Origin: Candidatus Omnitrophota bacterium
GTDB lineage: Bacteria; Omnitrophota; Gorgyraeia; B26-G9
Length of the DNA: 64,000 nt
Direction of reading: 5' to 3'
NCBI GenBank assembly: GCA_043806135.1
Contig: JAZDHG010000098.1
Coordinates: forward strand, 1,660-65,659
Positions 5,801-41,591 of this stretch are shown here, one piece after another. The translations under genes were made by a program, and so were the position numbers. Position 1 is the first letter of the stretch. Every line of letters starts with the position of its first letter. The notes under the pieces were generated by a model, which was not told the origin of the DNA, made no database searches, and was given only the letters and a program-made list of their open reading frames with translations.

Positions 5801-8800
5801 GGAAAGATAAAGTTGAGCATTACTGTCTTGCGCGGAAAACGCCTGAGTAATGCTTTTAAACAAAGACAGGAATTAAGTAAGGATGACGCGACCCTTAATG
5901 TTTATAGAAAGGTTATTTATAATTTGGTTGATAACCTTATCGATGAGGAACAACCTGTAGACATAGCATCAATTTTATTTTCTTTATATGGAGATAAGAT
6001 CAGCGCGCAGACCTTAGAGATGCAGAAGTCAGCGCTTCTTGAAAAGATGAGCGAGGACGATGTTAAAGCGATCATTGTTGATCTGCTTACCACGCACTGG
6101 ACATATTTTATTAACGGCCTTGAAACAATAAGTAAAACCCGCGGTTTATCAGATCAGCTTTCCGGAAAAGATGAAAAAGTCAACCGCGCTTTATATGAGA
6201 AGAAAACATCTGAGATATTCGATGAGATGCTATCAGACCTGAAGGAAAATGTATTTGCGGCATTGTTGATGCCGTTCATGTCGGAAAACGACAGGGCTGC
6301 TCTTAACAGCGAAGCAGAAGAGACTATAGCACTTGAAAAAGAAGGAGCAAGTATTTTTGATAAACTTGATCCTGAGGAGATAGCGCAAAGGATCAAAAAA
6401 GGGCTGAACATCACAGTAAAAGAAAAGGTGCCGAGTATTGCCGAGCGGTTCAGTAAATGGGTTTTTGGTGAGGAACGCGGAACTACAGCCTTATTAAGTT
6501 CTGTGCTTGCCAAAGGATTTTATGCGTTTATTACAATAGCAGGAATTTTTGGCGGGGTAATTACTCCTGCTAAAACTGAAGCTTCGATTATACCTTCTGA
6601 TGAAGGGTTAACTGTAAAAGTACAGGAAACAAAAGCAGAATTTTCCTTGAATGATAAGAGAAAAACACAGATACTGGCGGAAATTTCTTTTGCGAAGATA
6701 GCTCAGCTTGTCGACTTAAAACTTCGGTCTTCTGAGTTTCAGGAAAAATATACCGGCCGTCCAAAAGAGCAGTTACAAAGCCTGGCTTACGATGAAGTTA
6801 TCCGCGATATTATCAAAAAGTCAGAACTTGGCCAGGATGTGCTGGCTTCATTAAATGATATAAAGGAAGTTGAGCTTGAATCTATTCCTGTTGTGCAGAG
6901 AGCACAATCAGATGTTTTATCCGGTATTGTGGCTGATACGACGTTACAACAGGTTGTAAAAAAATTCCGTATTCCGGTAAAGACACCCTACCGAACAAAT
7001 CTAATGAGCGAGTTCGAAGCAATCCGTGACCAAGGACGGCGAATACATCAAGGTTTTGATTTCCTTGTACAGGCAGGTACGGATATCTATCCGGCAATGC
7101 CGGGAAAAGTAATTTTTTCAGGAGCACTTAACGGTTACGGGAACATGGTGCTGTTGGAGCATGAAGTTGCGGACAGCACAACAGGACTAGTAAATTATTT
7201 TTACACTCTATACGGGCATAATGAGTCGAATCTGGTTAAGGCCGGGGACTATATCGGAGTTGATACTGTGATCGCTAAAGCAGGAGTTACAGGCAACGCG
7301 TCATCAGCTACCGGCGGCTGCCTGCATTTTGAAATCAAACAAACCACGCAAAAAGTCACCAACTATGCTAAATACCTGAATTTGGCAGCTCTTGATCCAG
7401 AGGTTGTGTTAGGGAAAAATTTATATTTGCCTGCCGATATTAACAAACGCGAGCCGATTCTTGTTGCATCAGCAGATCCAAACATGCCTTTGTTCGCAGC
7501 GGATAGGCGGGAAAAGACAAAACAGCCAAAACCTGTTGAAGCGCGAACTCAGACAAGAAGTATTATCGGAGGCCAGATCAGGCATGAGGTAGCACCAGGG
7601 CAAACGCTTAGCATGATCGCTGAAAAATTCTTTGTTAACGGTACTTCCGGGGAAAAAATCAGAGAATTTTATAATAAACAGCATCCGGAAGCTCCTATGA
7701 AAAATTTGATGCTCCTTACCGGAAAGACACTTGTCCTGGATATAGACGAGGAGATAGCATCTTTATTAAGGCCGGAAGATAAAGACATATCAATACAAAG
7801 ACCTGATTCGGAGTTTTCTAATATAACAGAAAATATTCGAATAAGAGAGCAGGGAATAGAGGGGATAGTCAACTTGCCAGTGCGCCTTAAGGGTGGAAAA
7901 ACATCCTTTGAATTTGATGAACGCACGAAGTTTATGGCTTTGCGCGGTGAAAATAAAGACAAAAAAAATCCGGGAGTTGATTTTGTCTTAAAAGAAGAAA
8001 CGCCTGTATATGCTGCAGCTCCAGGAGAGGTTTTCTTTGTAGGTAAAGCAGAAGCATACGGCAATCTTGTTATTATTCATCATACTGTTAAGGATCAAAG
8101 GGAAAATATAAATCATTTTTACTCTCTGTATGCGCACAATAAGAGCAATAATGTAAAAGTAGGACAGTTGGTAGATGCGACAACTCAGATTTCTGTTGCC
8201 GGCAAAACAGGCAAACCGCCAATAAGTGATGCAGATGCTGTGCTTCATTTTGAAATCAGGCGCGGGATAGAAAAACTTGAAAATCATCAGGAATATCTAC
8301 ATGATGCTTCCTACAGTGCTCTTTATCCCGGAATTGCTCTGAAAACTCAGGTGTTAAATCCTGAATTGTTTTTCAATAAGACATTTGACTCAGGCCTTAA
8401 AGCAGGAAGGCTGATTGTTCCACAAAATGAATATAAGCCTTTATCTGCTCGAAATATTGAGCAAGATAAAGTAATATCCCGTCAGGATCTTGAGTATAGA
8501 ATTGCCCAAAGTATGAGAAATAGAAATTTAAACATTATCCCTGAAGGATTGATGAACGCGATTGTATATCAGCAGCTGGCTAAGGAGTTTGGAGTTGAGT
8601 TTTATCAGCCTGAGGCGGGTCTAAAGGGTGATGATTATTTTGAAAAACTTATGAAGGCGGTTCGTGCAAAGCATGGAGAAGATGTTCTTATTGTTGAAGG
8701 GCATTTTAATTCAGTACCAGAAATGATGTTCTTTTTTAAAGAAAACGGGATTCAATATATCTCTAAAGTTAAGCACGGTGAAGTAAAACAAAAAAAACAT

Positions 8801-11800
8801 GAATACCCAGATGTATCTGCAATGATTAAAGAATATGCTGTTGTTGCTGAATTCGGGTCTGCAGAATTGTTTTGCTCCTTACAACAGGAAGATTACCAGC
8901 GATATAAAATGGAATTCAAGAAAATGCTACAGCTGTATATCGATAATCATCCTGAGTGTAAAGGGAAGAAGATTGTTTTTATCCCCGGGCATGGAGGAGC
9001 AAATTATAAGACATCCTATTATATAGGGCCACAAGGACATTCTACAGGAGCTAATATTTCCAGATCAATTGTTAAAAGTACATTAGCTGAATATGATAAA
9101 TATACGCAGGATCTGCTGACTGCGGCTTTGGAAAAGGAGCATCAATTACCAAAGGTTGTGCAAGAAATAACTAGAACTGAGTTAGCGGTTATGGATTCAA
9201 GGTTAGAGCCTGTTGCAGGACAGGAAGGTATTGTAATTAGGGATTTAGCGCCAATTCCGGTTATATCAAAAGAAAAGGTTATTACTCCTAACGAAAAAAT
9301 AATCAAGCAGCCGGTTGCGCCGAAAACTCCGGAACCTACAGCAGGTGAATTCCAAAAGAAAAAATGGGAATATACAGTTAAACACGGTGATACATTGTCT
9401 GGAATTGCAAAAAAGTTGTTAGGCAGAGCTGATCTTTGGGAAAAACTTCGGGAGGATTATAACAAACAGCATCCGCAAAGACAGATACAGATAACTACTA
9501 ATGAAAATACGGGAATTATTAATGCGCTGATATATGCTGGTGAAAAATTAACTCTTGATATTGACCGGGATATTGCCGCATTGATTACGCCCCAGGCGCG
9601 GGAAAATCTGGGCATAGTTCTCAGTGCCGGCGGCCCGCCACCGTTAGCGCCTTTACCACCGCAAGAGAAACCTGAAATTACTGCGCCCCTGGCGGTCCCT
9701 GCTTATGTTGCAGCTGATGACAAGAAACAACTTGATAAAGAAAAGGTTGCTGTTCGTGCCGCAGAATTAATGGAAAAGGCGAAAAGTAAACAAGGTGAGG
9801 AGATATACTATCCGGAAAATCCTACTCCTGAGCGCAATTATGAACGCGGCATAGCCAAGGCGATCATACAGGTCATGATCAATAATAAGGACGGGGGGCA
9901 TTTTGCGGTTGCGGAAAACCCTGCTTTACAAGGTGAACTAAAAGATCTTGGTAATCTGCATTTTTATTTTCGTGATACAGGTAAAGAAATCAATGCCCGT
10001 GATAAGAGATTGTATGAACTTATTCAAAAAGATATAGCAGACAAGACAACTAAAGCAGCAGATATTGAGATATGGATCGGCAAAAAAGGAACCCCGGGTG
10101 CAAAGCCTTATATCCCTACGATAAAAGATGATCTTACTAAAAAAGAAAAACAGCTTGTATTTGATTCCTTGCTTGATATCAGTAATGTACAGCATTTACT
10201 GCATTTTTATAAATTCCCTACTCAGCTTGAAAAAAGAGACGAATTTGGCAGAGGACAGGAATTCACAAGCCCTACTGAAATCCGTGAGCATCAGGAGAAG
10301 GGATTTCCATTTGATATCTGGATTGAAAAAAGAGATACTCAGGAAAAACTCATCAGAATTTTCGGGCCTCAGAGTAAAGATTGGCAGCAATTTGTCAAAC
10401 CACCTGACCCAACAGATAAAGACCGGACATATATACAGTTTAAACCTGACTTCCTTGATTTGGTAAATAAATCCAGTGTTGTAAATAAAAAAGAATTAAT
10501 ACGGTTGTGGGAGGATTCCGAACGTACCGGTGATTATGCCTATCGCTTGCATTTTGGGTCAGTTGCGGCGAGTAAGACTCTTGAAGGTGTAAACAGTTAT
10601 GCTCTAGCTAGAGCTCTGCAGCTTGAAGTTGCCGATAAGATATTAAGCAATTTGGATATAGAAGCGCAACAGGGATTAATAAATAGGGCTAATTCTGAAG
10701 GCATTGTTTCTTTAGGTCCTAATGTTCCTGTAAAAGGAGTTGCCGGGCAGATACCGGAAAATCCAATGATGAAGAAAAGCCCTTATATAGGAGCTATTGT
10801 CGTTCAGAGAGAAGGCAACCCGGTAAAGGTAAATACATATTTTCAAAGCGAAAACCTTAATCAGAACTATGCTGAAGAACTGAAATTACCTAGGTTGGAA
10901 AAGACAGGTTTTGATATTGTTTACTATTTTTACAAGGATTCTCAAGGTAACATACAGCATAGGCGGATGCATTTCTTATCTTATAACCGTCAGGGAAAGC
11001 TGGTGGAGGTTAATGCCCGCTCTGCTCACGATATTATAGTTCTAGAAACTGACAAAAAGGCAGAGGAAAACGGGGATTGGTCAAAAAGCGATGTTCTATG
11101 GTTTGGCAAGAACGCAACCAATAAAGAAATCCTTAATGTATCTATCGGCACCCTGATGCATCAGATCGCTGTTGAAAACGCGCATAAGACCGCTAAACAG
11201 TTAAAGCGAAGGATGGTTTTTGAAGCCGTACTTCTTCCGATCAATGTTCTCGGCGGGTACGGGGTAGGCGGTATTGTATCAAAGTTGTCACAGCCATGGG
11301 CGCAGGCAGGGATACGTTTAATATATGATATGCTTTTTACTGCCTGGGAACTGCCGACAGGCGCGAAGATGCAAGGCCCGCCCAGTAAGGATACGGTTGA
11401 GACCTTTATTTCAAGTTATTTGTTCTTTACACAAGGCCCCGGAAAAAACAGGGAACAAAAAGGGCTGGAATTTATCACGACAGAAGATAAAAGCGGAAAT
11501 TTAACTATTACTGATGAAGAGTTTCGTACTTATGTTGAAAACCAGAAAAAAGATACAAAATCACCTCTTAACCTCTGGCTTACTATGGCCATGGATGATG
11601 AGGCCAGTAAAGGGTTTGTTAAATATGTGCAAGGGCAGAGAAAATTTGCTATTGCCATGTTCAGTATCGGGATTCTGGATAACCTGGCGCGTTTAAATAC
11701 AGAAAGCTATAATACACCGGGTAATGCGTTCAAAGATATTCTTGCCAGCCGGTATTTCAGTTTAACCGGAGAAGTAAATGTGTTGGCAGTAATCGGCGCG

Positions 11801-30498: not shown

Positions 30499-30858
30499 AT
30501 GGATAAAGAAAGACGTTACAGCATAAGAAAAGAAGCACGCAATATTTCCGTAAGCCTGCGTCCGCTTGACCCTAGCGTGTGGTTTCGTTGCTGGAATGGA
30601 ACAGAATGTATTATACGTGATATGAGTATGGTCGGAGTAGGAGTATTTTCAAAAGAGAATATACCTCAAGGGACGCCTTTGAGCGTTGATTTGCGTCTTG
30701 GCGAAAGTGCCGCTACCATCCGTATTTTCGGAAAAGTGGCATGGGTTATAAAGGAAGAAAACTGCTTCAGATCCGGAGTGAGCTTTTCCTGGTGGAAGGA
30801 TGACCAGGACAAAAAAATCGCCGGCACCTTTCTTGAAAAACTATCGTCTATTAACTGA
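30499..30858 (+). CDS. PilZ domain protein (c-di-GMP-binding family)
   Basis: N-terminal ERRYSIRK (RxxxR-like) followed by DMSMVGVGV (D/NxSxxG-like). Size 119 aa is typical of stand-alone PilZ. RBS ACGGAG upstream. Confidence 0.65.
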   Translation: MDKERRYSIRKEARNISVSLRPLDPSVWFRCWNGTECIIRDMSMVGVGVFSKENIPQGTPLSVDLRLGESAATIRIFGKVAWVIKEENCFRSGVSFSWWKDDQDKKIAGTFLEKLSSIN

Positions 30859-30961
30859 AAGATGTAATTCTCTAGCATAAGACAGTTTTTCAACCCCAAT
30901 CCTAAATCCACAATCTCATGATTTCTTGACACCCCCCACCAATTCAATCTAAAATATAGCT

Positions 30962-30996
30962 AACCCAATTCTGACACCGGGAGTCAGAATTGGGTT
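30962..30996. repeat. REP-like perfect hairpin upstream of the RAYT (14-bp stem aacccaattctgac / gtcagaattgggtt, 7-nt loop)
   Basis: Read directly from the sequence. It shares the core ctgac-N-gtcag with the hairpin downstream of the RAYT. Confidence 0.6.
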
Positions 30997-31048
30997 AAAT
31001 GGATGATTTTGGATATAGGGGAATTATTGATTTAGGAAAGGAGCTGGT

Positions 31049-31687
31049 ATGCCTATAAGAGCGGACGTGGTTAGCGGAAGAATGTATCATGTTTTTACGA
31101 AAAGCATCGCCGGATTTATTGTTTTTAATAATGATGCTGAGTATGACAGGATGATCTATGCATTAAACTATTATAAGATCATGGGAATTGGCTACTGCTA
31201 TTCAGACTATATCAAACATGTTTATAAAACTGATTTATTGAAAGATAAAGATCAAACAGTAGATATTATCGCATATTGTTTAATGCCCACACATTTACAT
31301 TTTATTCTCAAACAAAATGTCGATAAAGGCATATCACTCTTTATGAGAAAGGTTCTCAATAGTTATTCTAAATATTTTAATTGCAAAATTAAAAGAAAAG
31401 GCCCTTTGTGGGAAAGTAGATTTAAAAATGTTAAGATAGAGAATGATGAACAGTTAATGCATTTAACCCGATATGTGCACTTAAATCCTGTTACCGCAAA
31501 CTTGGTAAAAAAACCAAATTTTTGGAAATATTCTTCATATAATGAATATCTGAACAAGACAAAAGAAAAAATATGCAACTATGGCGAGGTTTTGGATATT
31601 GATCCAGGGGAATATAAAGAATTTGTTGGGTCCCAAATAGATCATCAAAAAGAATTAGCGCATATCAAGCATTTAATCCTTAAATAA
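31049..31687 (+). CDS. REP-associated tyrosine transposase (RAYT) / IS200-like Y1 (HUH) transposase
   Basis: HUH motif in CLMPTHLHFIL. Conserved GPLWESRF (compare G-x-LWQ-RF of Y1 transposases). Catalytic Tyr context RYVHLNPV followed by ...WKYSSY. RBS AAAGGAG upstream. Flanked by REP-like hairpins. Confidence 0.8.
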   Translation: MPIRADVVSGRMYHVFTKSIAGFIVFNNDAEYDRMIYALNYYKIMGIGYCYSDYIKHVYKTDLLKDKDQTVDIIAYCLMPTHLHFILKQNVDKGISLFMRKVLNSYSKYFNCKIKRKGPLWESRFKNVKIENDEQLMHLTRYVHLNPVTANLVKKPNFWKYSSYNEYLNKTKEKICNYGEVLDIDPGEYKEFVGSQIDHQKELAHIKHLILK

Positions 31688-31691
31688 CCAG

Positions 31692-31714
31692 ACTCTGACC
31701 CCCGCGGTCAGAGT
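31692..31714. repeat. REP-like hairpin downstream of the RAYT (9-bp stem actctgacc / ggtcagagt, loop cccgc)
   Basis: Read directly from the sequence. Same tctgac...gtcaga core as the upstream hairpin. Confidence 0.55.
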
Positions 31715-31861
31715 GGGGTTGGGTTTTACAATTAACTTGATCTGTTTTTTTTCTTGCGTTTAAATTTTTAGTTTATCCCGCTTGTTTTATCAAAAAAATC
31801 AACTCTGTAACCCGCAAACGCGTTAACACGATAACTATCTTATTTTCAATATGTTATGAGC

Positions 31862-31890
31862 TTGCATTGTCGTGAATCCTATGGTATACT
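31862..31890 (+). promoter_or_regulatory. sigma70-like promoter (TTGCAT-17-TGgTATACT) within a diverged copy of the repeated promoter cassette, upstream of giant gene 2
   Basis: TTGCAT at 31862-31867, 17-nt spacer, TATACT at 31885-31890. The surrounding caatatgttatgagcttgca...aatcctatggtatacttt matches the repeats at 40367-40416 and 41857-41906. Confidence 0.5.
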
Positions 31891-32408: not shown

Positions 32409-35400
32409 TTGCTTATGAAAAGCTTGACTTTAAAAAAACAAAAGGCAGTATATTATCGCGCAAATTCCTTAATTATTGCTTTTGCCTTTGTTTGTACATC
32501 GATAATCCCTCCTGGGTATGCACAGAGCATAACGACTTTGAATCTTCCAAAACCGGGAGTAATGATTCCCCAAAGCCCTGCATTTGTGCCAGTTTTGCTT
32601 AAAGGTATGACGATTTATCCGGATAATCCATTACGGTTTGACTTCATTGTTGATAATGGAAATACTAATTTTATACCTGATGAAATCAAAGAAGAGTCTA
32701 ATCGGCTAGTAAAATATTTTCTTGCCGCCATGACTATTCCGCAGAATGATTTGTGGGTCAACCTGTCTCCCTATGAAGCAAATAAGATTATTCCAACTGA
32801 ACTTGGGAAGACTGAATTAGGCAGAGATATGCTGGCGCAGGATTATATTCTTAAGCAGTTGACAGCATCATTACTTTATCCCGAAAAAGAGCCGGGAAAA
32901 GCTTTCTGGGCCAAGATATATATGAAAGCTAAAGATAAGTTCGGCACAGCAGAAATCCCCATCAATACATTTAATAAGGTCTGGATAATCCCTGAAGAAG
33001 CGCTGGTTTATGAAAATGGCAATGCGGTCTATATTGTTAAAAGCCGTCTAAAAGTGATGCTGGAGGAAGATTATCAGGCTTTGCATCAAAACAGAAAAAG
33101 CGTGAAACTTAAAGTAGATCAATCATCGGATTTACAGACTAAAGGTGCAGCATTAATTTCTTCACAAATAGCGCGTGAAATTATTCTTCCGGAAATTGAA
33201 CGTGAAGTTAATGAAGGTAAAAATTTTGCTTCTATCCGGCAAATTTATCAAGCTTTGATTCTTGCCAAGTGGCACAAAGAAACAATCAAAGAAAGTCTTA
33301 TGTCAAAAGTTTATATTGATCAGAAGAAAATAATGGGAGTAGATTTGTCTGACCCAATGGTTAAAGACAAGATTTATGCCCAATATGTCGAAGCGTTTAA
33401 GAAGGGAGTTTTTAATTTTATCAAGGAAGATTATGACCAAGTGAGTCAGAAGGTTATCCCGAGGAAGTATTTCTCTGGCGGTGAAAAGTTTGGCGATATA
33501 CCTTTGAAGCGAACAAAAGACGCCAGACAGCTTAATTCTTCGCCAATAGGCGATTATTATAAATTAGTAGTAAAAATAGATCCACAGATGAAAACTGGAA
33601 ACGATGATCATGAGATAAAGAATTTGGCTGGAGTCAATCCAAGTAGGGGGTCTCCCCAACTTAAAGAAACTAACGCCGACAAACTAGAATTTGACGCTGA
33701 AGGACTTGATATTGCATTTAAAATTTTCGATTCAAAGGCAGATGTCCCTGAACTCCTTAAAAAAATATCAGGGATTCACGGGGTTGAGAGAGTTGATTGG
33801 AAAGACGGAGTCTTAACAATTATCAGTAAAACAGAGGCTGTCAAAGTCCACCCTAAAGATTTGGAAATAAATGAACGCCATCAAATAAAAGATAGATTTT
33901 ATGTTAAACCTATCTCTGCTTGCGGTGAGATGGCTGTAAAAATTTATCACCGTGATTCTCGTGATGAAATAAAACGGCCCAATAAACCGGTTTATGTGCT
34001 TGGCGTTGTGCGTCCTAGCCATGATGCAGGGGCTGCTTTAATTAAAGACGGGGTTCTTGTCGGAGCTATCGAAGAAGAACGTTTGAATTTGGACAAACAT
34101 GCCAATGCGTACTTCCCTAAGGAGGCAACGCGTTATTTATTAGAAGCTAACGGAATTACCTGGGAAGACATCGACCATATAGCGGTTACTTATGATTATA
34201 ATTTTTACCAGGAAACTCCAAGCAGCAAAGAGCCACATTATTATTATCGTCAAAAATACAATCTTCCTTTTAAGAATTCTTATCGACGATACGATATAAA
34301 TAAGTTTCAATCATTTTTAGAAGGTATGGCTGTTGATTATGGCACAGGATATATTCCTCCAGTTACTTTTGTCAAGCATCACAAGGCTCATGCAGCAGCC
34401 GCATATTATTCTAGTGGATTTACAGAACCGACTTTAGTCGTGTCCATTGATGGCCAAGGAGAAGATGAATCCACAACCATTTGGATAGCGAAAGATGGTC
34501 AATTAAAAAGGATCGCACGCACAACTCCTTTCACGCATTCGTTAGGACATTTTTATCATATCATGACAGTTTACTTGGGATATCAAAGACATGATGAAGG
34601 AAAAGTCATGGGGTATGCTCCTTATGGGGCGCCAAGAAATCTCCAAGAAGAGAGGACGGTCAATCAATTAAGAGAAATAATGCGAGAATTGATATGGTTT
34701 AATCGGAAAACCGAGCAAATTGAAATGAATCAAGAGAATTTTGAATTAACAACAATATCTGCTTTTCCTGGAGTTAAATTTTCAGAAAGTTTTTTACAAC
34801 GGTTAGTTAAGATTATCCCGCCTATGCCTGAAAGCAAGTCTGGTCGTGATTTACAACCAGAAGACCGAAAGAGGGCACATTTGGCATTTGCCATGCAAGA
34901 ACGAGTGGAACAAGTTATTGATGATATGGTTTCTTATTATCTTAATGAAAATAAGGAAACAAAGGGAGTAAAATACGTTGTCATGACTGGAGGCCTTGCT
35001 CTTAATATTGCTTCCAATGGGAAACTTATTGAAAAGGGCACCGTTCAAGCAGATAAATTTTTCGTGCCGGCTTATCCGGCTGATGACGGGACAAGTGTCG
35101 GCGCTGCTCTCTCGGTTTCAACTGAAGAGTATGGCTTGGATGTTCAGAATAAGGTTCAAAAAATATCTTTTGGAAAAACATATTCTGATGAAGAAATTCA
35201 AAGGACATTAGAATGTTTTGGCTTAGAAGAGGGCGTTGACTATGAGCGTATTCAGAACGATGAGCAATTAGTTAATGAGGTAACTGATGCGATTGTGCAT
35301 GACAAAACGGTGGCTTGGTTTCAGGGAGGATCAGAATTAGGTCCAAGAGCCTTGGGGAATAGAAGTATTTTGAATAGGTTAACTGATCCGGAAGGGAATC

Positions 35401-38400
35401 TCAAAGTTAATCGAATCAAAAACCGGGAACTTTGGCGACCATCTGCTTTATCTATTCAAGAAGAACGGGCAGCAGAATTTTTGGATGGAGTAAACACATC
35501 TCCTTTTATGACAATATCATTCCCAGTAACAAAGGACAAAAAAGATATAATCAAAGCTGGGGCTCATCCAGGAGATGGAACGACTCGTCCTCAAACAGTT
35601 TCTCGTGAGGCCAATCCTCTTTATTGGGAATTGCTTGGTGAAATGGGAGAACGCACAGGCGTTCCAGGAGTCCTTAATACATCTTTTAATAGGCGAGGAC
35701 CTATTGTTGAGACACCGGAAGATGCCCTCAATACGTATTTTTATGGCGAAGGATTAGATGTGTTAACCATAGGGCATTATATTCTAAGGAATAAGGAAAA
35801 AATCGTTCCAAGTGTGTTGAATGGTGGAGATGAAGTAGATTTGAAAGAATTTTTCAAGTTAGGAAAAAATAAATCCGAACCATTAAACAAAGTGTGGGAT
35901 GAGTTTTGGCTACAAGCCAATAACGTAGCGGCTTCAAGAGCTTCTGCGCATCAGCACTACTTGATAGTTAATGTTGATGATGCTGGTGAGAATCGTGAAA
36001 TCTTAAGAATTCCATTAATTAAAGAAATGTTTCAAGAGGGGCCGCGTGAATTTATGGTTGCAGACCTTGCCGCAAGAATTCAAAAAGGCATAGGGAGTGA
36101 TAAACTGACAACAATAGCTATTGAAACAACAGCACCTCAATTTAGAGAGATAGTTGTTGATTTATTTGAAAAGTTAGCCCCGGAAAATCTTAAAAGAAAT
36201 TGGAATATTGTTAAATTAGGTTTTGGCGAATGCTCGTCTCTTAAAGAGGAGCTACAACAAAGACGAGTTAATTCTACGGAAGCTGTTAAGGACTTAAATA
36301 GGAATATTAAAAAATGGCAAGGAGAACAGCGTATTGATCCTATTTTTATTGCTGTTACGGGACCAGGCGAAAGCGGCAGAACTTCCATTGTGAATGGATT
36401 GCAAGAGAAACATTTTGTGATTAATGCCGATAGATGGAAGCTATCAGAACATCAGATAAATAATTTGCTCAACTATCCATTTTCGCATATGAGATTTAAT
36501 GATTATGTCAATGCGTTAAAAAGATTACAACAGGGTCAAACAGCTATGATCCCGTTACAGAAAACTCTATCAGCAAAATCGCCACAACGAGGGTTTGCTC
36601 TTTTAAATGAAGAAACAAAAGAAAAATATAAGTATATTTTGGTAAAGGAAAACAGTCAGGTTTGGATCCGACATGACGGACAACTATTTGAGGAAGTTAG
36701 ACCTGAGGCGTCTGATATTTTTATTGTCAATACATCTGTTGCATTAAACTATCCGATATTGCGAAATTTATTTGAAGAAGTTTATTTTGTCGCATCCAAT
36801 GAAGAATTGAAAGAACCATCGAAAAAAGGCGAAGATGGCATTATTCCACCCCACAGGCGTGGAGTTGAATTTGCAACAACTATCGTTGAATTAGATGATG
36901 CCCAAACTTTTTGGACTCCGCTTAAGACCCCGCAGCCAATTAAGCAAATAGACTCAATGTGTGTAGCCCTTGCGAATTATTGTCCAGTGGGTTGTTCATT
37001 TTGTTTTATGCGGTCAGTTCAAGATAAAAGAAAAAGAATAGCATTAGGGTCTAAAGCTATAGAAAGAATTCTTTCTTATGCTAAAGAAAATCAAGTTTTT
37101 CGTATTATGTTATCAGGGGGTGAACCTCTTAGCGAGATTGCAACTGTATTAAGGGTAATACGCGAGGCGGAAGTGCCGCATATCACGATTTTTACTAGTG
37201 GCTATTTTGCAGTAAATGCATCTCGGACGGAAGAGGTCCTTGATCAGTTAGTTGCGGCTGTTAGAGAAAGGAAGCAATCGGGAAAGAAGCCTGTACATAT
37301 ACTTTTTGAAGTAAGTGTTGATGAGTTTCATGGCCGGCGTGTACCGCAAAAGAATATTATCAATATTATCAGAGAATTCGAAAAGGATATGGGTGCGAAG
37401 TACTCAGATATGACCCTTGAAGTTAAGGGCATACTAAATGATGGGGATACAATTCCAGAAATAATGCAAACATTAGGGGGAAAGATCCAGGAAGTTCATC
37501 AAAGCGGACCTTTTCCTACTAAACCGATTATTCTCCCATCTGGCTACACATTTAATGTTCGCTATTCTGAAATAAAACTTGTAAAAGACACGATAAATAC
37601 GAAATTATCAAAAAAACGGTTTGATAGGGTCTATCAAAGAAGATTGGAAGATGATATTATCTATATGGGGAGGGGAGAGAAAAGTGGCGCTAGTTTCTCT
37701 GTTAATTATGACGGAGTGGTCTCTGTTAATGACTATTTAGCAAAAGATTTCGTGTTGGGGAATGCAAATAATGATAACTTCAGTGAGGACGTTGACAGGC
37801 GTTTAAGGTTTGACCCTCTTGTTGTTGCATTACGAGAAATTGGATTAAATACTGTTTTAGACATTACTTCTCGTTTGCGACCAAATATACGGAAAAAATC
37901 GATAGAAATGAACAATCAGTTTATTACAATATCCGATATTTTGGAAGACGAAGAATTGAGAGAAAATATCTATAAGGAATTAATTCAATTGATAGAAAAA
38001 AAAGAGAATCCTGCGTTAAAAGGATCAGCTAATAATGTGCAGTTCTTAAATACTGGTGTTGCTGACTTGACTAAAAAGGTATTTATCATTGGTGATGGCC
38101 ATATTGAATTAGGTGGTTCAGTGACCGTAAAAGGCAATAGAAGCCAGATTAGATTCCAAGGAGAAAATCAAGAGAACTTAGTTATTCGGATGGGTAACGG
38201 CTTGGTAATGGAAGATTGCTTTATTTCTTTAAGAAGGAGCCAAGGGGAGGCTCGTGTGGAATGGCAGGGCGATACTTTGATAATAGAGGAAATGGATATT
38301 GGGGAAAATGTCAGAATCACTAAAGGTGGGGAAATCATGAATGTTCCATGGATAGGTGATGATGTAGAGATTGCAGGGTCATTTTTGATTGAGATGGATA

Positions 38401-39938
38401 ATGCGGGCGTTGGCGACCGAACAAAAATTCTAAGTAATAGCGAAGCAAGAATGAGTACTATTGGTTCAGATGTTGTTATTGACCAGCAATCAAAGATATT
38501 TAAATCAATAGTATCTTCAGGAGCTAAAATCATAAATACGAGTTTAGTGGGGGGGCAGGATGAACTCGTTGGTGGATGGAGACAAAAAGATGACGGAGGA
38601 AAAGGGCGCGGTGTGGTTATTGGAAAGGGCGTGGAGTTTCGTAATGGGATTGCACAACATTTAGGTGTTAAAGAAGGCAAAATAAATCCAATAACTGTGG
38701 CTGATGGAGTAAATCTGGATGGAGTTTTTCTGATTTCCGAAAGGAACAAAGGCATACATGCAATCGTTGATTTAGAGCTCGAGGTAGGTCAACGTGTTTA
38801 TATTTTTGATGGTGTTATTGTTGATGAAGTGGTTAAAAAACAAATTCTAGATAAGCTTGATACGTCGGACATTGTTAAAGTAAGTTTTGAAGAGGGGATT
38901 GCCAAAGTAGAAAGTGTTGCTGGATCAGTGGTAACGCCGGAATTATTAAATGTACCCCAGCTAAAAGAGGAATACGCAACTCAAAAGACTCGTGGAATAC
39001 CAAAGGTATACTCAATAGATACCATACAAGAAGCTAAAGATTTAAACGATCTTTTGTTAAAGAGTGATATTTTTATTAGTCGAGCAGGGGAGATCCTGAC
39101 TTCAAGAGGCGAGAGGGATGACATTGCGGTTCGGATTGGTCAGGGAGCATTTGTTTACCCTGGGGTAGAGATTTATGCGAATGAAGGACGAACAGTTAAT
39201 ATAAATGTTTGGGATTTAGGTAATAGGGGTGGAGCTCTAATAATTGCTGATGAACAAGATGTTCAACTTGGCCCCAAGAATCGGCTGGCAGGCCGTATAG
39301 TTGCGGCAGTTATCAGAGATGTAAATGTCGATGCAGAATTTAATAATTTTGGAGGTATTGCGGATACTATTACAGGAAATGCTAAGATTACTATTAGGAA
39401 TCAAGGCATGCTTAAAAATGCTAATCTTTCATCTGATGGAAAAGGCAAAGGTGAGATCGTTTGGGGGTCGTATCAAGGTGAAAACGTTGATATCGAAGTA
39501 ACTGGTGATGTTGTCGTGGGTTTATCATATGGTGGAATAATTCAAGGACAAAGTTTAAGTGATGGGAGAAACTCAATAAAATTAGTTTCAGGATTTAATT
39601 CTGGTTATAGGTCAGTAATTATAGATGAACGTCAAGAACCGGTTGAACAAATTATTTATGATAGTCTTTATAATGCAACGGATTTTATAATGAAGAGTTT
39701 TTCTTCGCATTCTCCTAAGTATGGTGGTATTGATATGACTGATATAAAGTTCAATCGTAGGGGGGCTGGTGTTGATATCCAAATTGATCCGGTGGTGTTG
39801 CAGAGCATGCTCGAACGGGGAATAAATGGATTTACTCCAGTGATTATCAATTTAACACCGATTAATAACATTATGCCTCTTTTAGGACTTGAACCGAAAA
39901 GCAGAGAAAAGGAGTATGAGTTGTCGAGTTTAAATTAA
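32409..39938 (+). CDS. giant multidomain protein (2509 aa): signal peptide; NodU/CmcH-type carbamoyltransferase; degenerate P-loop; radical-SAM core; C-terminal beta-helix-like repeats
   Basis: Likely true start is the ATG at 32415 (MKSLTLKK...). Signal peptide ends ...SIIPPGYAQS. Carbamoyltransferase N domain spans 33985-35110 (VYVLGVVRPSHDAGAALIKDGVLVGAIEEERLNLDKHANAYFPKEA; HHKAHAAAAYYSSGF; VMTGGLALNIASNGKL; FVPAYPADDGTSVGAAL). Carbamoyltransferase C domain spans 35310-35800 (GPRALGNRSIL, SPFMTISFPV, NTSFNRRGPIVETPEDA). IAVTGPGESGRTS lies at 36346-36390. The radical-SAM motif CPVGCSFC lies at 36981-37004, followed by MLSGGEPL. Glycine-rich hexapeptide-like beta-helix repeats span 38080-39560. 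Confidence 0.85.
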   Translation: MLMKSLTLKKQKAVYYRANSLIIAFAFVCTSIIPPGYAQSITTLNLPKPGVMIPQSPAFVPVLLKGMTIYPDNPLRFDFIVDNGNTNFIPDEIKEESNRLVKYFLAAMTIPQNDLWVNLSPYEANKIIPTELGKTELGRDMLAQDYILKQLTASLLYPEKEPGKAFWAKIYMKAKDKFGTAEIPINTFNKVWIIPEEALVYENGNAVYIVKSRLKVMLEEDYQALHQNRKSVKLKVDQSSDLQTKGAALISSQIAREIILPEIEREVNEGKNFASIRQIYQALILAKWHKETIKESLMSKVYIDQKKIMGVDLSDPMVKDKIYAQYVEAFKKGVFNFIKEDYDQVSQKVIPRKYFSGGEKFGDIPLKRTKDARQLNSSPIGDYYKLVVKIDPQMKTGNDDHEIKNLAGVNPSRGSPQLKETNADKLEFDAEGLDIAFKIFDSKADVPELLKKISGIHGVERVDWKDGVLTIISKTEAVKVHPKDLEINERHQIKDRFYVKPISACGEMAVKIYHRDSRDEIKRPNKPVYVLGVVRPSHDAGAALIKDGVLVGAIEEERLNLDKHANAYFPKEATRYLLEANGITWEDIDHIAVTYDYNFYQETPSSKEPHYYYRQKYNLPFKNSYRRYDINKFQSFLEGMAVDYGTGYIPPVTFVKHHKAHAAAAYYSSGFTEPTLVVSIDGQGEDESTTIWIAKDGQLKRIARTTPFTHSLGHFYHIMTVYLGYQRHDEGKVMGYAPYGAPRNLQEERTVNQLREIMRELIWFNRKTEQIEMNQENFELTTISAFPGVKFSESFLQRLVKIIPPMPESKSGRDLQPEDRKRAHLAFAMQERVEQVIDDMVSYYLNENKETKGVKYVVMTGGLALNIASNGKLIEKGTVQADKFFVPAYPADDGTSVGAALSVSTEEYGLDVQNKVQKISFGKTYSDEEIQRTLECFGLEEGVDYERIQNDEQLVNEVTDAIVHDKTVAWFQGGSELGPRALGNRSILNRLTDPEGNLKVNRIKNRELWRPSALSIQEERAAEFLDGVNTSPFMTISFPVTKDKKDIIKAGAHPGDGTTRPQTVSREANPLYWELLGEMGERTGVPGVLNTSFNRRGPIVETPEDALNTYFYGEGLDVLTIGHYILRNKEKIVPSVLNGGDEVDLKEFFKLGKNKSEPLNKVWDEFWLQANNVAASRASAHQHYLIVNVDDAGENREILRIPLIKEMFQEGPREFMVADLAARIQKGIGSDKLTTIAIETTAPQFREIVVDLFEKLAPENLKRNWNIVKLGFGECSSLKEELQQRRVNSTEAVKDLNRNIKKWQGEQRIDPIFIAVTGPGESGRTSIVNGLQEKHFVINADRWKLSEHQINNLLNYPFSHMRFNDYVNALKRLQQGQTAMIPLQKTLSAKSPQRGFALLNEETKEKYKYILVKENSQVWIRHDGQLFEEVRPEASDIFIVNTSVALNYPILRNLFEEVYFVASNEELKEPSKKGEDGIIPPHRRGVEFATTIVELDDAQTFWTPLKTPQPIKQIDSMCVALANYCPVGCSFCFMRSVQDKRKRIALGSKAIERILSYAKENQVFRIMLSGGEPLSEIATVLRVIREAEVPHITIFTSGYFAVNASRTEEVLDQLVAAVRERKQSGKKPVHILFEVSVDEFHGRRVPQKNIINIIREFEKDMGAKYSDMTLEVKGILNDGDTIPEIMQTLGGKIQEVHQSGPFPTKPIILPSGYTFNVRYSEIKLVKDTINTKLSKKRFDRVYQRRLEDDIIYMGRGEKSGASFSVNYDGVVSVNDYLAKDFVLGNANNDNFSEDVDRRLRFDPLVVALREIGLNTVLDITSRLRPNIRKKSIEMNNQFITISDILEDEELRENIYKELIQLIEKKENPALKGSANNVQFLNTGVADLTKKVFIIGDGHIELGGSVTVKGNRSQIRFQGENQENLVIRMGNGLVMEDCFISLRRSQGEARVEWQGDTLIIEEMDIGENVRITKGGEIMNVPWIGDDVEIAGSFLIEMDNAGVGDRTKILSNSEARMSTIGSDVVIDQQSKIFKSIVSSGAKIINTSLVGGQDELVGGWRQKDDGGKGRGVVIGKGVEFRNGIAQHLGVKEGKINPITVADGVNLDGVFLISERNKGIHAIVDLELEVGQRVYIFDGVIVDEVVKKQILDKLDTSDIVKVSFEEGIAKVESVAGSVVTPELLNVPQLKEEYATQKTRGIPKVYSIDTIQEAKDLNDLLLKSDIFISRAGEILTSRGERDDIAVRIGQGAFVYPGVEIYANEGRTVNINVWDLGNRGGALIIADEQDVQLGPKNRLAGRIVAAVIRDVNVDAEFNNFGGIADTITGNAKITIRNQGMLKNANLSSDGKGKGEIVWGSYQGENVDIEVTGDVVVGLSYGGIIQGQSLSDGRNSIKLVSGFNSGYRSVIIDERQEPVEQIIYDSLYNATDFIMKSFSSHSPKYGGIDMTDIKFNRRGAGVDIQIDPVVLQSMLERGINGFTPVIINLTPINNIMPLLGLEPKSREKEYELSSLN

Positions 39939-40758: not shown

Positions 40759-41160
40759 ATGAGTATATTATTAAAAGAAGACATAATCAGGAAAGCAACG
40801 GATTTCTTTTTAAAAAGGCCGGAAGTTAAATTTGCTTATTTGTTTGGGTCTGTCGCTCTTGGAAAGAGCAATAAATTGAGTGATGTGGATATTGCTGTGT
40901 TTATTGACAATGATTATTTAAAAGAAAATAAATTTACTTATGGATATAAAGCAGAGCTTATAACAGAGCTTATTAAAGTTCTAAGAACAAATAGCGTGGA
41001 TTTAGTTATTTTAAACAGTGTCCCTGTTCTGCTTAAGCATAAGGTTTTGGTAGGAGGTAAATTGCTTGTTTGCCGTGATGATTCAGAAAGAATTAGATTC
41101 CAAGTGAAAAGCCTGAATGAATACAGTGATCTTAAATGTTTGTTTTTAACGCATAATTAG
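40759..41160 (+). CDS. mntA: MntA-type minimal nucleotidyltransferase, antitoxin of a HepT/MntA type VII TA pair
   Basis: GS-x9-11-DxD Pol-beta NTase motif in YLFGSVALGKSNKLSDVDIAVFID. 133 aa. Directly followed (11-nt gap) by a HEPN/DUF86 gene. Confidence 0.8.
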   Translation: MSILLKEDIIRKATDFFLKRPEVKFAYLFGSVALGKSNKLSDVDIAVFIDNDYLKENKFTYGYKAELITELIKVLRTNSVDLVILNSVPVLLKHKVLVGGKLLVCRDDSERIRFQVKSLNEYSDLKCLFLTHN

Positions 41161-41171
41161 AAGAGGCCGCA

Positions 41172-41591
41172 ATGGTTGACGCGCAAATATTGGTCGTAAA
41201 GCTTAAGGAATTAGAAAAATATATCGCTGAATTAGAAAAATTAAAAACAACTTCCCTTGAAACGCTGTCAAAGGATTTAAACAAAATATGGTCACTTGAA
41301 CATGGTTTGCAGTTATCGATTCAAATAATTATTGATATTGGCAATCATATTTTAGCTGATATGAAAGAAAGCAATATAGAAACTTATACTGATGTTATTG
41401 ATCTGTTAGGTGTGAAAAAAGTAATTCCCGTTGATTTCGCGAAACGTATACGCGCAATGGTTGGGCTTAGGAATATTCTTGTTCATGAATATGTAGAAGT
41501 GGATTTAAAACAGCTTTATTCAGTATTGCGGAATAATTTAGATGATTTTAAAGAATTCGTTAAATTAATTAGATGTTTTTTGAAGAAATAA
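41172..41591 (+). CDS. hepT: HepT-type HEPN (DUF86) toxin of the type VII TA pair
   Basis: R-x4-HxY HEPN motif in GLRNILVHEY. 139 aa. Gene order NTase-then-HEPN is typical of MntA/HepT. Confidence 0.8.
   Translation: MVDAQILVVKLKELEKYIAELEKLKTTSLETLSKDLNKIWSLEHGLQLSIQIIIDIGNHILADMKESNIETYTDVIDLLGVKKVIPVDFAKRIRAMVGLRNILVHEYVEVDLKQLYSVLRNNLDDFKEFVKLIRCFLKK

Follow-up and report, generated by a model that had tools for sequence, protein, structure and literature searches.

We describe here a short locus in a 64,000-nucleotide stretch of a Candidatus Omnitrophota genome (GenBank assembly GCA_043806135.1, contig JAZDHG010000098.1, positions 1,660 to 65,659 of the forward strand; hereafter the window, to whose first letter all coordinates refer), in which an intact gene for a predicted Y1/HUH single-strand DNA nuclease-ligase is preceded by its own promoter-like site and bracketed by two copies of one 37-nt palindrome, HP1 and HP2. 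The gene resembles the RAYTs, the tyrosine transposases associated with repetitive extragenic palindromes (REPs), and the TIRYTs, and the hairpin-gene-hairpin unit is referred to below as the cassette. Its features are as follows:

30926-30955 (+), sigma-70-like promoter TTGACA-18-TAAAAT, matching 11 of 12 consensus positions, function predicted
30961-30997 (no strand), HP1, the upstream 37-nt palindrome TAACCCAATTCTGAC-accggga-GTCAGAATTGGGTTA, recognised by its stem, core count and folding
31038-31043 (+), Shine-Dalgarno-like AAGGAG, 5 nt 5' of the ATG, read directly from the sequence
31049-31687 (+), Y1/HUH gene, RAYT/TIRYT-like, 212 aa, ATG start, intact open reading frame (ORF)
31292-31300 (+), HUH motif H82-L-H84, within the Y1 gene
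31472-31474 (+), predicted catalytic Y142 in YVHLNP, placed by alignment with Y115 of PDB entry 4er8
31685-31721 (no strand), HP2, a decayed 37-nt copy TAACCAGACTCTGACC-cccgc-GGTCAGAGTGGGGTTG overlapping the stop codon, recognised on the same three grounds

The stem of HP1 (AACCCAATTCTGAC-accggga-GTCAGAATTGGGTT, 30962-30996) comprises 14 perfect base pairs around a 7-nt loop, ends 52 nt 5' of the ATG and is 15 bp long if the closing T/A at 30961/30997 is counted. HP2 forms a stem of 9 perfect pairs that starts 5 nt 3' of the stop codon (ACTCTGACC-cccgc-GGTCAGAGT, 31692-31714) and extends imperfectly to AACCAGACTCTGACC/GGTCAGAGTGGGGTT (31686-31720, 87% complementary), which identifies it as a decayed copy of the HP1 unit. 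Both belong to one 37-nt family of the form TAACC...TCTGAC...GTCAGA...GGTTA, whose core, TCTGAC-N3-9-GTCAGA, matches twice in the window against 0.01 expected, none of 100 shuffled sequences reaching two matches. As folded single-stranded DNA, HP1 has an energy of -14.9 kcal/mol (z -7.6) and HP2 of -11.4 kcal/mol (z -3.3). The window holds no further copy of the palindrome: a relaxed search with a 14-mer and up to 3 mismatches gave 8 matches (6.4 expected), among which only the four hairpin arms are genuine. An Rfam search found no family at the hairpins or elsewhere in the window. The relative orientation of HP1 and HP2 is ambiguous because their loops have diverged; in the closest relative (L001, 90% protein identity), the two loops are exact reverse complements, so that the pair is inverted. 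The promoter-like site, the best in the region, ends 5-6 nt 5' of HP1, and HP1 would therefore form the 5' end of the mRNA. The check for target duplications that had been suggested in the initial annotation revealed no direct repeat bracketing the cassette; as none is expected for Y1 elements, this result is uninformative.

The protein carries a Pfam Y1_Tnp match (1.6e-7) and is not matched by the NCBIfam transpos_IS200 model (NF033573). No Pfam domain follows its Y1 core, and in particular no C-terminal helix-turn-helix (HTH) of the Bac_DnaA_C, HTH_23 or HTH_28 type. Its best sequence match in the PDB is E. coli TnpA_REP (4er8, 1e-7), in which Y142 pairs with Y115 and H82-L-H84 with the HUH motif; searched with a profile, the PDB yields 4er8 at 2.9e-8 and ISDra2 at 2.6e-3. 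An AlphaFold (AF2) model built from 32 relatives (mean predicted local confidence, pLDDT, 87.9) has 4er8 as its top Foldseek match (6.7e-9, target TM-score 0.71, identity 19%), followed by the IS608, ISDra2 and IS200 transposases near 1e-4; as modelled, the fold appears nearer to TnpA_REP than to the TnpA of IS200/IS605 elements. In these 32 relatives H82, H84, Y142 and 39 other columns are invariant, the best match to the REP_Tyr_transpos model (NF047646) reaches 1e-21, and the one match to transpos_IS200 stands at 1e-3. The tyrosine motif YVHLNP of the window protein has the Y---NP signature of class 2 TnpAY1 proteins (PMC6006769 Table 1) and not the Y---Q of IS200. The family motifs Y[VIL]HLNP, PLWE and W-x-[FY]-SSY agree with those tabulated for subclass 2.1, the HuH context being T-H-L-H (T-H-x-H across the family) and not N-H-[VYF]-H. 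Compared with E. coli TnpA_REP, the protein carries an additional C-terminal region, about 50 aa long and conserved. Judged by these motifs and matches, it is an intact HUH/Y1 enzyme of TnpAY1 class 2, on the side of the RAYTs and distinct from a conventional IS200 TnpA.

The arrangement is shared by close relatives, in which the orthologues are 90% (L001), 72% (L005), 71% (L011) and 66% (L008-10, identical to L017) identical to the window protein. Promoter, hairpin, a spacer of variable length, gene and second hairpin at the stop codon follow one another in all five related genomes. In their alignment the promoter-like element TTTCTTGACAyyCCC...TAAAATA is invariant, and HP1 has an identical counterpart in L001 and conserved ones in L005, L008 and L011. 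The gene order was compared in L005, L008-10, L011 and, in part, L001, whose contig is shorter: a giant ORF of 5,000-9,000 aa, a PilZ gene, an optional gene of 650-973 aa, the Y1 gene, a large ORF, a major facilitator superfamily (MFS) gene and a glycoside hydrolase (GH) gene are kept in this order. The syntenic loci stand at 63-90% protein identity, with a synonymous divergence (dS) of about 0.3-1.4, and the ratio of non-synonymous to synonymous divergence (dN/dS) of the Y1 gene is 0.12-0.28. Fifteen hairpins of this clade, all of them units of 36-37 nt, have 94.2% of their cells paired and show compensatory change at five stem pairs (14 cells); among 500 shuffles none attains the observed number of cells, fraction paired or covariation score, and 22 attain the number of pairs. 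On account of the synteny, the low dN/dS and the compensatory pairing, the Y1 gene is resident at a fixed position and under purifying selection, and the hairpins are themselves kept by selection. The homology of the window to L001 (88.9%) spans 30892-31721 and ends at the 3' end of HP2, as does its homology to all the relatives. In L005 the order is PilZ, hairpin, the 973-aa gene (p973), promoter, hairpin and Y1, and a derivation of the window from this arrangement by simple deletion, hairpin by hairpin, was rejected, because the window retains the promoter between PilZ and HP1. In L011, a second and unrelated Y1_Tnp gene (10776-11315; 179 aa, NHVH...YIKTNP, 24% identical) lies directly 3' of HP2, with a copy of the promoter motif, TTCTTGACACCC, upstream of it.

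The palindrome also occurs without the gene. The genome collection was scanned with a stringent pattern of 28 specified bases, by which diverged copies are missed, and six stretches were found; a match on a Saprospiraceae contig (L015) was rejected as a chance look-alike, namely an intrinsic terminator. The L011 genome (GCA_043814605.1) has two further copies on another contig (L013 and L014), one lying 6 nt after, and the other overlapping, the stop codon of an unrelated gene, and the L008 genome has one solo copy between two genes (L012). These solo copies share the 37-nt unit alone, with no homology in their flanks, and a copying mechanism is therefore needed. Additional local copies follow the PilZ gene in L005 and the 650-aa gene in L001 and L011. 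The palindrome is thus a dispersed repeat, present in low copy number. At 1.5 kb from the solo palindrome of the L008-relative genome, a 329-aa protein combining Y1_Tnp and Bac_DnaA_C, of the subclass 2.1 type, is encoded (L012, 2026-3018, minus strand); it is 34% identical to the window protein over the core.

Beyond this clade, 80 metagenomic loci were surveyed in addition to the earlier ones, and 73 could be evaluated for an exact word of at least 12 nt common to the 200 nt upstream and the 130 nt downstream of the gene. Such a word is found in 62 of them, with a median length of 19 nt, and in none of the 73 shuffled controls. Perfect stems of at least 8 bp are present within 130 nt upstream in 60% of the loci and within 90 nt downstream in 50%, versus 1-5% in controls. 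The hairpin sequence is lineage-specific and varies with the protein lineage (e.g. CCCTTGTTAACCT, TTCCGTCC and, in CP070837.1, a complete Omnitrophota genome of 1.55 Mb, ACTTACACCT), and the apical part is across the family usually of the form ...ACC(T)-3 nt-(A)GGT... REPIN-like double palindromes occur in four loci (L069, L038, L091 and L073). None of the 95 loci contains a second full cassette or a near-identical duplicate. Just 3' of the full gene in L024 (3820-3942; identical to L025) lies a 41-aa fragment resembling the C-terminal part of Y1, possibly the remnant of a tandem duplication. Distant copies of the hairpins are rare across 728 kb of family loci, with the exception of L082 (= L087), where seven intergenic copies of TACACCT-cgt/acg-AGGTGTA stand within 5 kb (6842-11758) and share the extended flanks ccccaaaaacc...gtaaactgatattgtatgcca; here the Y1 gene is surrounded by a genuine REP-like cluster. 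Homologues about 217 aa long and 50-57% identical occur in Omnitrophota, Nitrospirota and Brocadiaceae, among others. When 1.84 billion cluster representatives (50% identity) were searched with a profile, 711 matched at E<=1e-30 and 16,323 at E<=1e-10. We found no description of this protein family or of its hairpins in the literature, including a 2026 preprint on Omnitrophota genomes. The family is a large environmental subfamily, hitherto undescribed, of a known kind of enzyme.

On longer time scales the cassette has not always stayed in place. In two genomes, CP070837.1 (L006, 9950-10700) and GCA_974502255.1 (L098, 2382-3175), it is found within the dcw operon, with murB on one side and ddl on the other, and related genomes have murB-ddl without it, so that the whole unit was gained or lost at least once. 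Between these two genomes the Y1 proteins are 86% identical, compared with 60% for MurB, 72% for Ddl, 68% for MurC and 44% for FtsQ, which argues for strong constraint or recent homologous replacement and not for decay; the 3-nt loops of both hairpins are flipped from one genome to the other on identical stems. In the window clade, the Y1, MFS, GH and PilZ genes give incongruent patterns of similarity: L001 and L008 are 65% identical in Y1 and 91% in the MFS protein, whereas L001 and the window are 90% identical in Y1 and 50% in the MFS protein. The cassette has therefore been gained, lost or swapped over long time scales. In two loci without the cassette (L100, 3886-4086, and L101, 1044-1193), a long, unrelated palindrome rich in G+C, GGCTCGGGTGCGTCC...GGACGCACCCGAG, lies between murB and ddl. 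A bolder proposal, which we put forward as tentative and at present somewhat unlikely, is that the family constitutes an undescribed TnpAY1 subclass, sister to 2.1 and an evolutionary intermediate between an IS200-type element and a REPtron. The cassette would then be long resident and occasionally moved or swapped as a unit, as the murB-ddl insertion and the incongruence of the alleles with their flanks suggest; the enzyme may still act on its hairpins, to which the solo copies and the loops flipped on the same stems point; and the conservation of Y1 (86%) next to neighbours at 44-72% would suggest a function for the host.

Taken together, we consider it likely that the locus is a minimal, low-copy module similar to a REPtron and not an active IS200: a resident class 2 Y1/HUH gene of the domesticated type which would be expressed from its own promoter and act on the two cognate 37-nt palindromes that bracket it. 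TnpA_REP and the TnpA of IS200/IS605 bind folded single-stranded hairpins strand-specifically, cleave nearby through the catalytic tyrosine and can transfer strands (PMC8266576, PMC6006769). By analogy with E. coli TnpA_REP and IS608 TnpA, the window enzyme would bind the palindrome when it is folded as a single-stranded hairpin, for instance on the lagging-strand template, would nick beside it through Y142 with a metal ion held by H82 and H84, and may rejoin the cut end to another cleaved hairpin. The palindrome would in this way be maintained and occasionally copied to new intergenic sites, mostly just after stop codons, the enzyme being the putative disperser of the solo copies. Since the unit is nearly symmetric and carries no tag, recognition would have to depend on the loop together with the apical stem, which is where the family is conserved. 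Moreover, since transcription from the predicted promoter would run into HP1 and HP2 comes after the stop codon, the palindromes would also cap both ends of the enzyme's mRNA, and where they lie at the 3' ends of other genes they probably stabilise the RNA as well. A role in DNA and a role at RNA ends are not mutually exclusive.

Several observations weigh against this interpretation. The locus fails three canonical features of RAYT/REP systems. The window protein scores 69.8 bits with REP_Tyr_transpos, below the equivalog cut-off of 80 that marks the canonical RAYTs of subclasses 2.2 and 2.5. Neither hairpin has a GT[AG]G or CGTC tag at its foot, the unit being symmetric (TAACC...GGTTA), and Q95, E100, H101 and R104, by which E. 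coli TnpA_REP contacts the GTAG tag (PMC6006769), align to E122, N127, V128 and E131. In the sequence that was scanned, the palindrome is scarce: the 64-kb window has two copies, and each sister metagenome-assembled genome (MAG) yields 3-5 matches to the exact pattern. Furthermore, the flanking hairpins of the family have the same orientation (direct) in 44 loci and are inverted in 17, one locus being indistinguishable, an arrangement like that of IS200, and the nearest published group, subclass 2.1, was reported to lack REP-like structures (PMC6006769). The claims of the initial annotation can be viewed in this light. The hairpins it had described, with a 14-bp stem 52 nt upstream, a 9-bp stem 5 nt after the stop codon and a common core, are where it placed them and far exceed expectation (2 versus 0.01), and their reading as one element tied to the gene is borne out by the anatomy of the five relatives, the 62 of 73 loci with shared words and the stem covariation. 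Its naming of the gene as a RAYT stands as far as the side of the family is concerned, on the evidence of profile models and fold, and goes too far if a canonical RAYT was meant, given the subthreshold score and the replaced contact residues; a grouping with IS200 TnpA, which it had named as the contrary outcome, is not what the relatives show, as 32 of 32 match the RAYT model and 1 of 32 the IS200 model. Likewise, the hairpins are REPs in the sense of cognate palindromes with solo copies in sister genomes, where a lack of any other copy would have spoken to the contrary; they carry no tag, and the copies counted are too few to call them highly repetitive.

An autonomous IS200-like element, currently quiescent in the clade, would account for part of the evidence. 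On this explanation the hairpins are left and right subterminal ends, and a unit of about 760 bp moves by single-strand peel-and-paste. The cassette is indeed compact, with one hairpin ending about 35 nt before the start codon and the next beginning about 18 nt after the gene; direct hairpins outnumber inverted ones (44 to 17); its homology block with L001 stops at HP2; its similarity is incongruent with that of its flanks both for L001 and L008 and for L001 and the window; and it separates murB from ddl in two genomes, relatives of which have murB-ddl without it. Yet the cassette occupies a constant locus in five genomes, even where identity has fallen to 63% and dS is saturated or nearly so; dN/dS is 0.12-0.28, and there is one copy per locus with no near-identical duplicates in 95 loci. 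The protein has Y---NP in place of Y---Q, 31 of the 32 members have no match to the IS200 hidden Markov model (HMM), solo hairpins occur without the gene, and a conserved promoter lies outside the left hairpin. The dcw cassette itself, with Y1 at 86% next to MurB at 60% and Ddl at 72%, speaks of constraint or of recent homologous replacement. We therefore regard an active or dormant insertion sequence (IS) of this kind as unlikely.

Nor does it seem probable that the hairpins act purely at the RNA level, as a 5' stabiliser and a 3' stabiliser or terminator unrelated to any DNA activity of the enzyme, with the solo copies being ordinary stem-loops at 3' ends. This explanation would fit the 5-6 nt between the promoter and HP1, the location of HP2 and of the L013 and L014 copies within a few nucleotides of stop codons, and the orientation of the copies in the L011 genome, where, in all five, the C-rich strand of the loop coincides with the sense strand of the neighbouring gene. 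Generic terminators, however, would not put one and the same sequence on either side of the gene in 62 of 73 loci and change it with the protein lineage, and solo copies that consist of the 37-nt unit without flanking homology require copying. The hairpins lack a consistent T-run, matches to terminators are weak, and in the dcw operon they flank the gene even though a separate promoter would not fit. That two unrelated palindromes lie beside a transposase fragment by chance or through an assembly artefact can be dismissed with near certainty. The elements are small, and one database match (L015) did prove to be a look-alike terminator; against this, the core matches number 2 where 0.01 are expected, and the same anatomy recurs in independent assemblies from NCBI, ENA, JGI and Logan. 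The core count, the shared flank words in 62 of 73 loci and the stem covariation refute this possibility. The REPtron-like module remains the explanation that we favour. A protein identical to that of the window is annotated as 'transposase' in a Candidatus Omnitrophota MAG; the Y1 gene in the window is evidence of neither an active IS nor a recent insertion, and its annotation should reflect this.

The genes around the cassette form an island of large ORFs. Upstream are an ORF of 9,129 aa (2894-30283, +) and a 119-aa PilZ-domain gene (30499-30858, +; Pfam 2.5e-8). This pair is kept in four related Omnitrophota loci, whose giant ORFs have 5,372-8,616 aa or more. Another promoter-like element lies 3' of HP2 (TTGCAT-17-TATACT, 31862-31890, +); it is conserved in L001, L005 and L008, not in L011, and presumably serves the next gene. 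Downstream, an ORF of 2,509 aa (32409-39938, +) joins N- and C-terminal carbamoyltransferase domains (residues 531-1127) to a radical SAM/4Fe-4S domain (1518-1620), an unusual fusion, and different large ORFs (1,032-1,064 aa) take its position in the relatives. The gap between it and a 1,989-aa ORF contains a toxin-antitoxin pair, an MNT nucleotidyltransferase (40759-41160, +; Polbeta 9e-20) and a HepT-like RNase (41172-41591, +; 7e-29); in L002 such a pair is located upstream of a 655-aa gene. Several of the large ORFs of the island have an N-terminal segment in common (window 42006 onwards, p973 of L005 and p1032 of L008). In the initial annotation the site was also considered a likely hotspot of recombination or insertion. 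This is supported in part and indirectly: gene content between PilZ and Y1, and 3' of Y1, varies among the relatives, and the neighbouring genes differ incongruently in similarity. Nothing ties this variation to the Y1 enzyme.

To our knowledge, work on RAYT/REP systems has been confined almost entirely to Proteobacteria and Cyanobacteria. In the large environmental subfamily revealed by this locus and the roughly 80 relatives sampled here, palindromes are as a rule paired and specific to the lineage, the GTAG tag is absent and the copy number is very low. Such a simple system, with one enzyme and two to a few substrates, lends itself to studying how Y1 enzymes recognise symmetric hairpins, and to asking what a 'domesticated' Y1 enzyme does for its host.

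Among the known systems, IS200/IS605 elements (IS200, IS608 and ISDra2; TnpA of subclass 1.1) share with the cassette the HUH/Y1 fold, a compact unit, about 0.75 kb long, that has hairpins close to both ends, mostly direct across the family, and the lack of a target duplication. The window protein fails the sequence features of IS200, having Y---NP and not Y---Q and no match to the IS200 HMM, and the cassette differs in being single-copy in the loci surveyed, syntenic over deep divergence, devoid of tnpB and accompanied by solo hairpins. The TnpAY1 proteins of subclass 2.6 and class 3 are described as associated with 'atypical secondary structures', hairpins without GT[AG]G of which copies exist elsewhere in the genome (PMC6006769). 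The hairpins reported here are reminiscent of these in both respects, whereas the key motifs of subclass 2.6 (NH[LIV]H, WQ, YIH[QN]NP) and class 3 (Y..EQ) and their taxonomic range are different, as far as a comparison by published description goes. Subclass 2.1 (Bertels group 1; TIRYT/TIRtron, PMC3733652) is similar in Y[IV]HLNP, W-E and the SS tail W-x-[FY]-SSY, and among the terminal repeats of TIRYTs some are self-complementary, making up families of moderate abundance (PMC3733652). Two features of this subclass are nevertheless missing from the window protein, namely the N-H-[VYF]-H context, replaced by T-H-x-H, and the HTH/DnaA_C tail; the protein is also shorter (212 aa versus a median of 238) and has no GGGGWSAS motif, and paired hairpins are here the rule (62 of 73 loci), unlike in subclass 2.1 as published. 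The best match in both structure and sequence is the REPtron of E. coli with its TnpA_REP (RAYT, 4er8; Bertels group 2, Quentin subclass 2.2). The differences from it include an identity of only 19% with a score below the equivalog cut-off, the extra conserved C-terminal region of about 50 aa, a symmetric and near-perfect 37-mer without GTAG tag or bulge in place of the E. coli palindrome, contact residues that are not conserved, and a copy number in units instead of tens to hundreds. What the two have in common is the HUH motif with a catalytic tyrosine in Y---NP, a resident gene, single-copy in the loci surveyed and inherited vertically within the clade, and cognate palindromes which both bracket this gene and occur as solo intergenic copies downstream of other genes.

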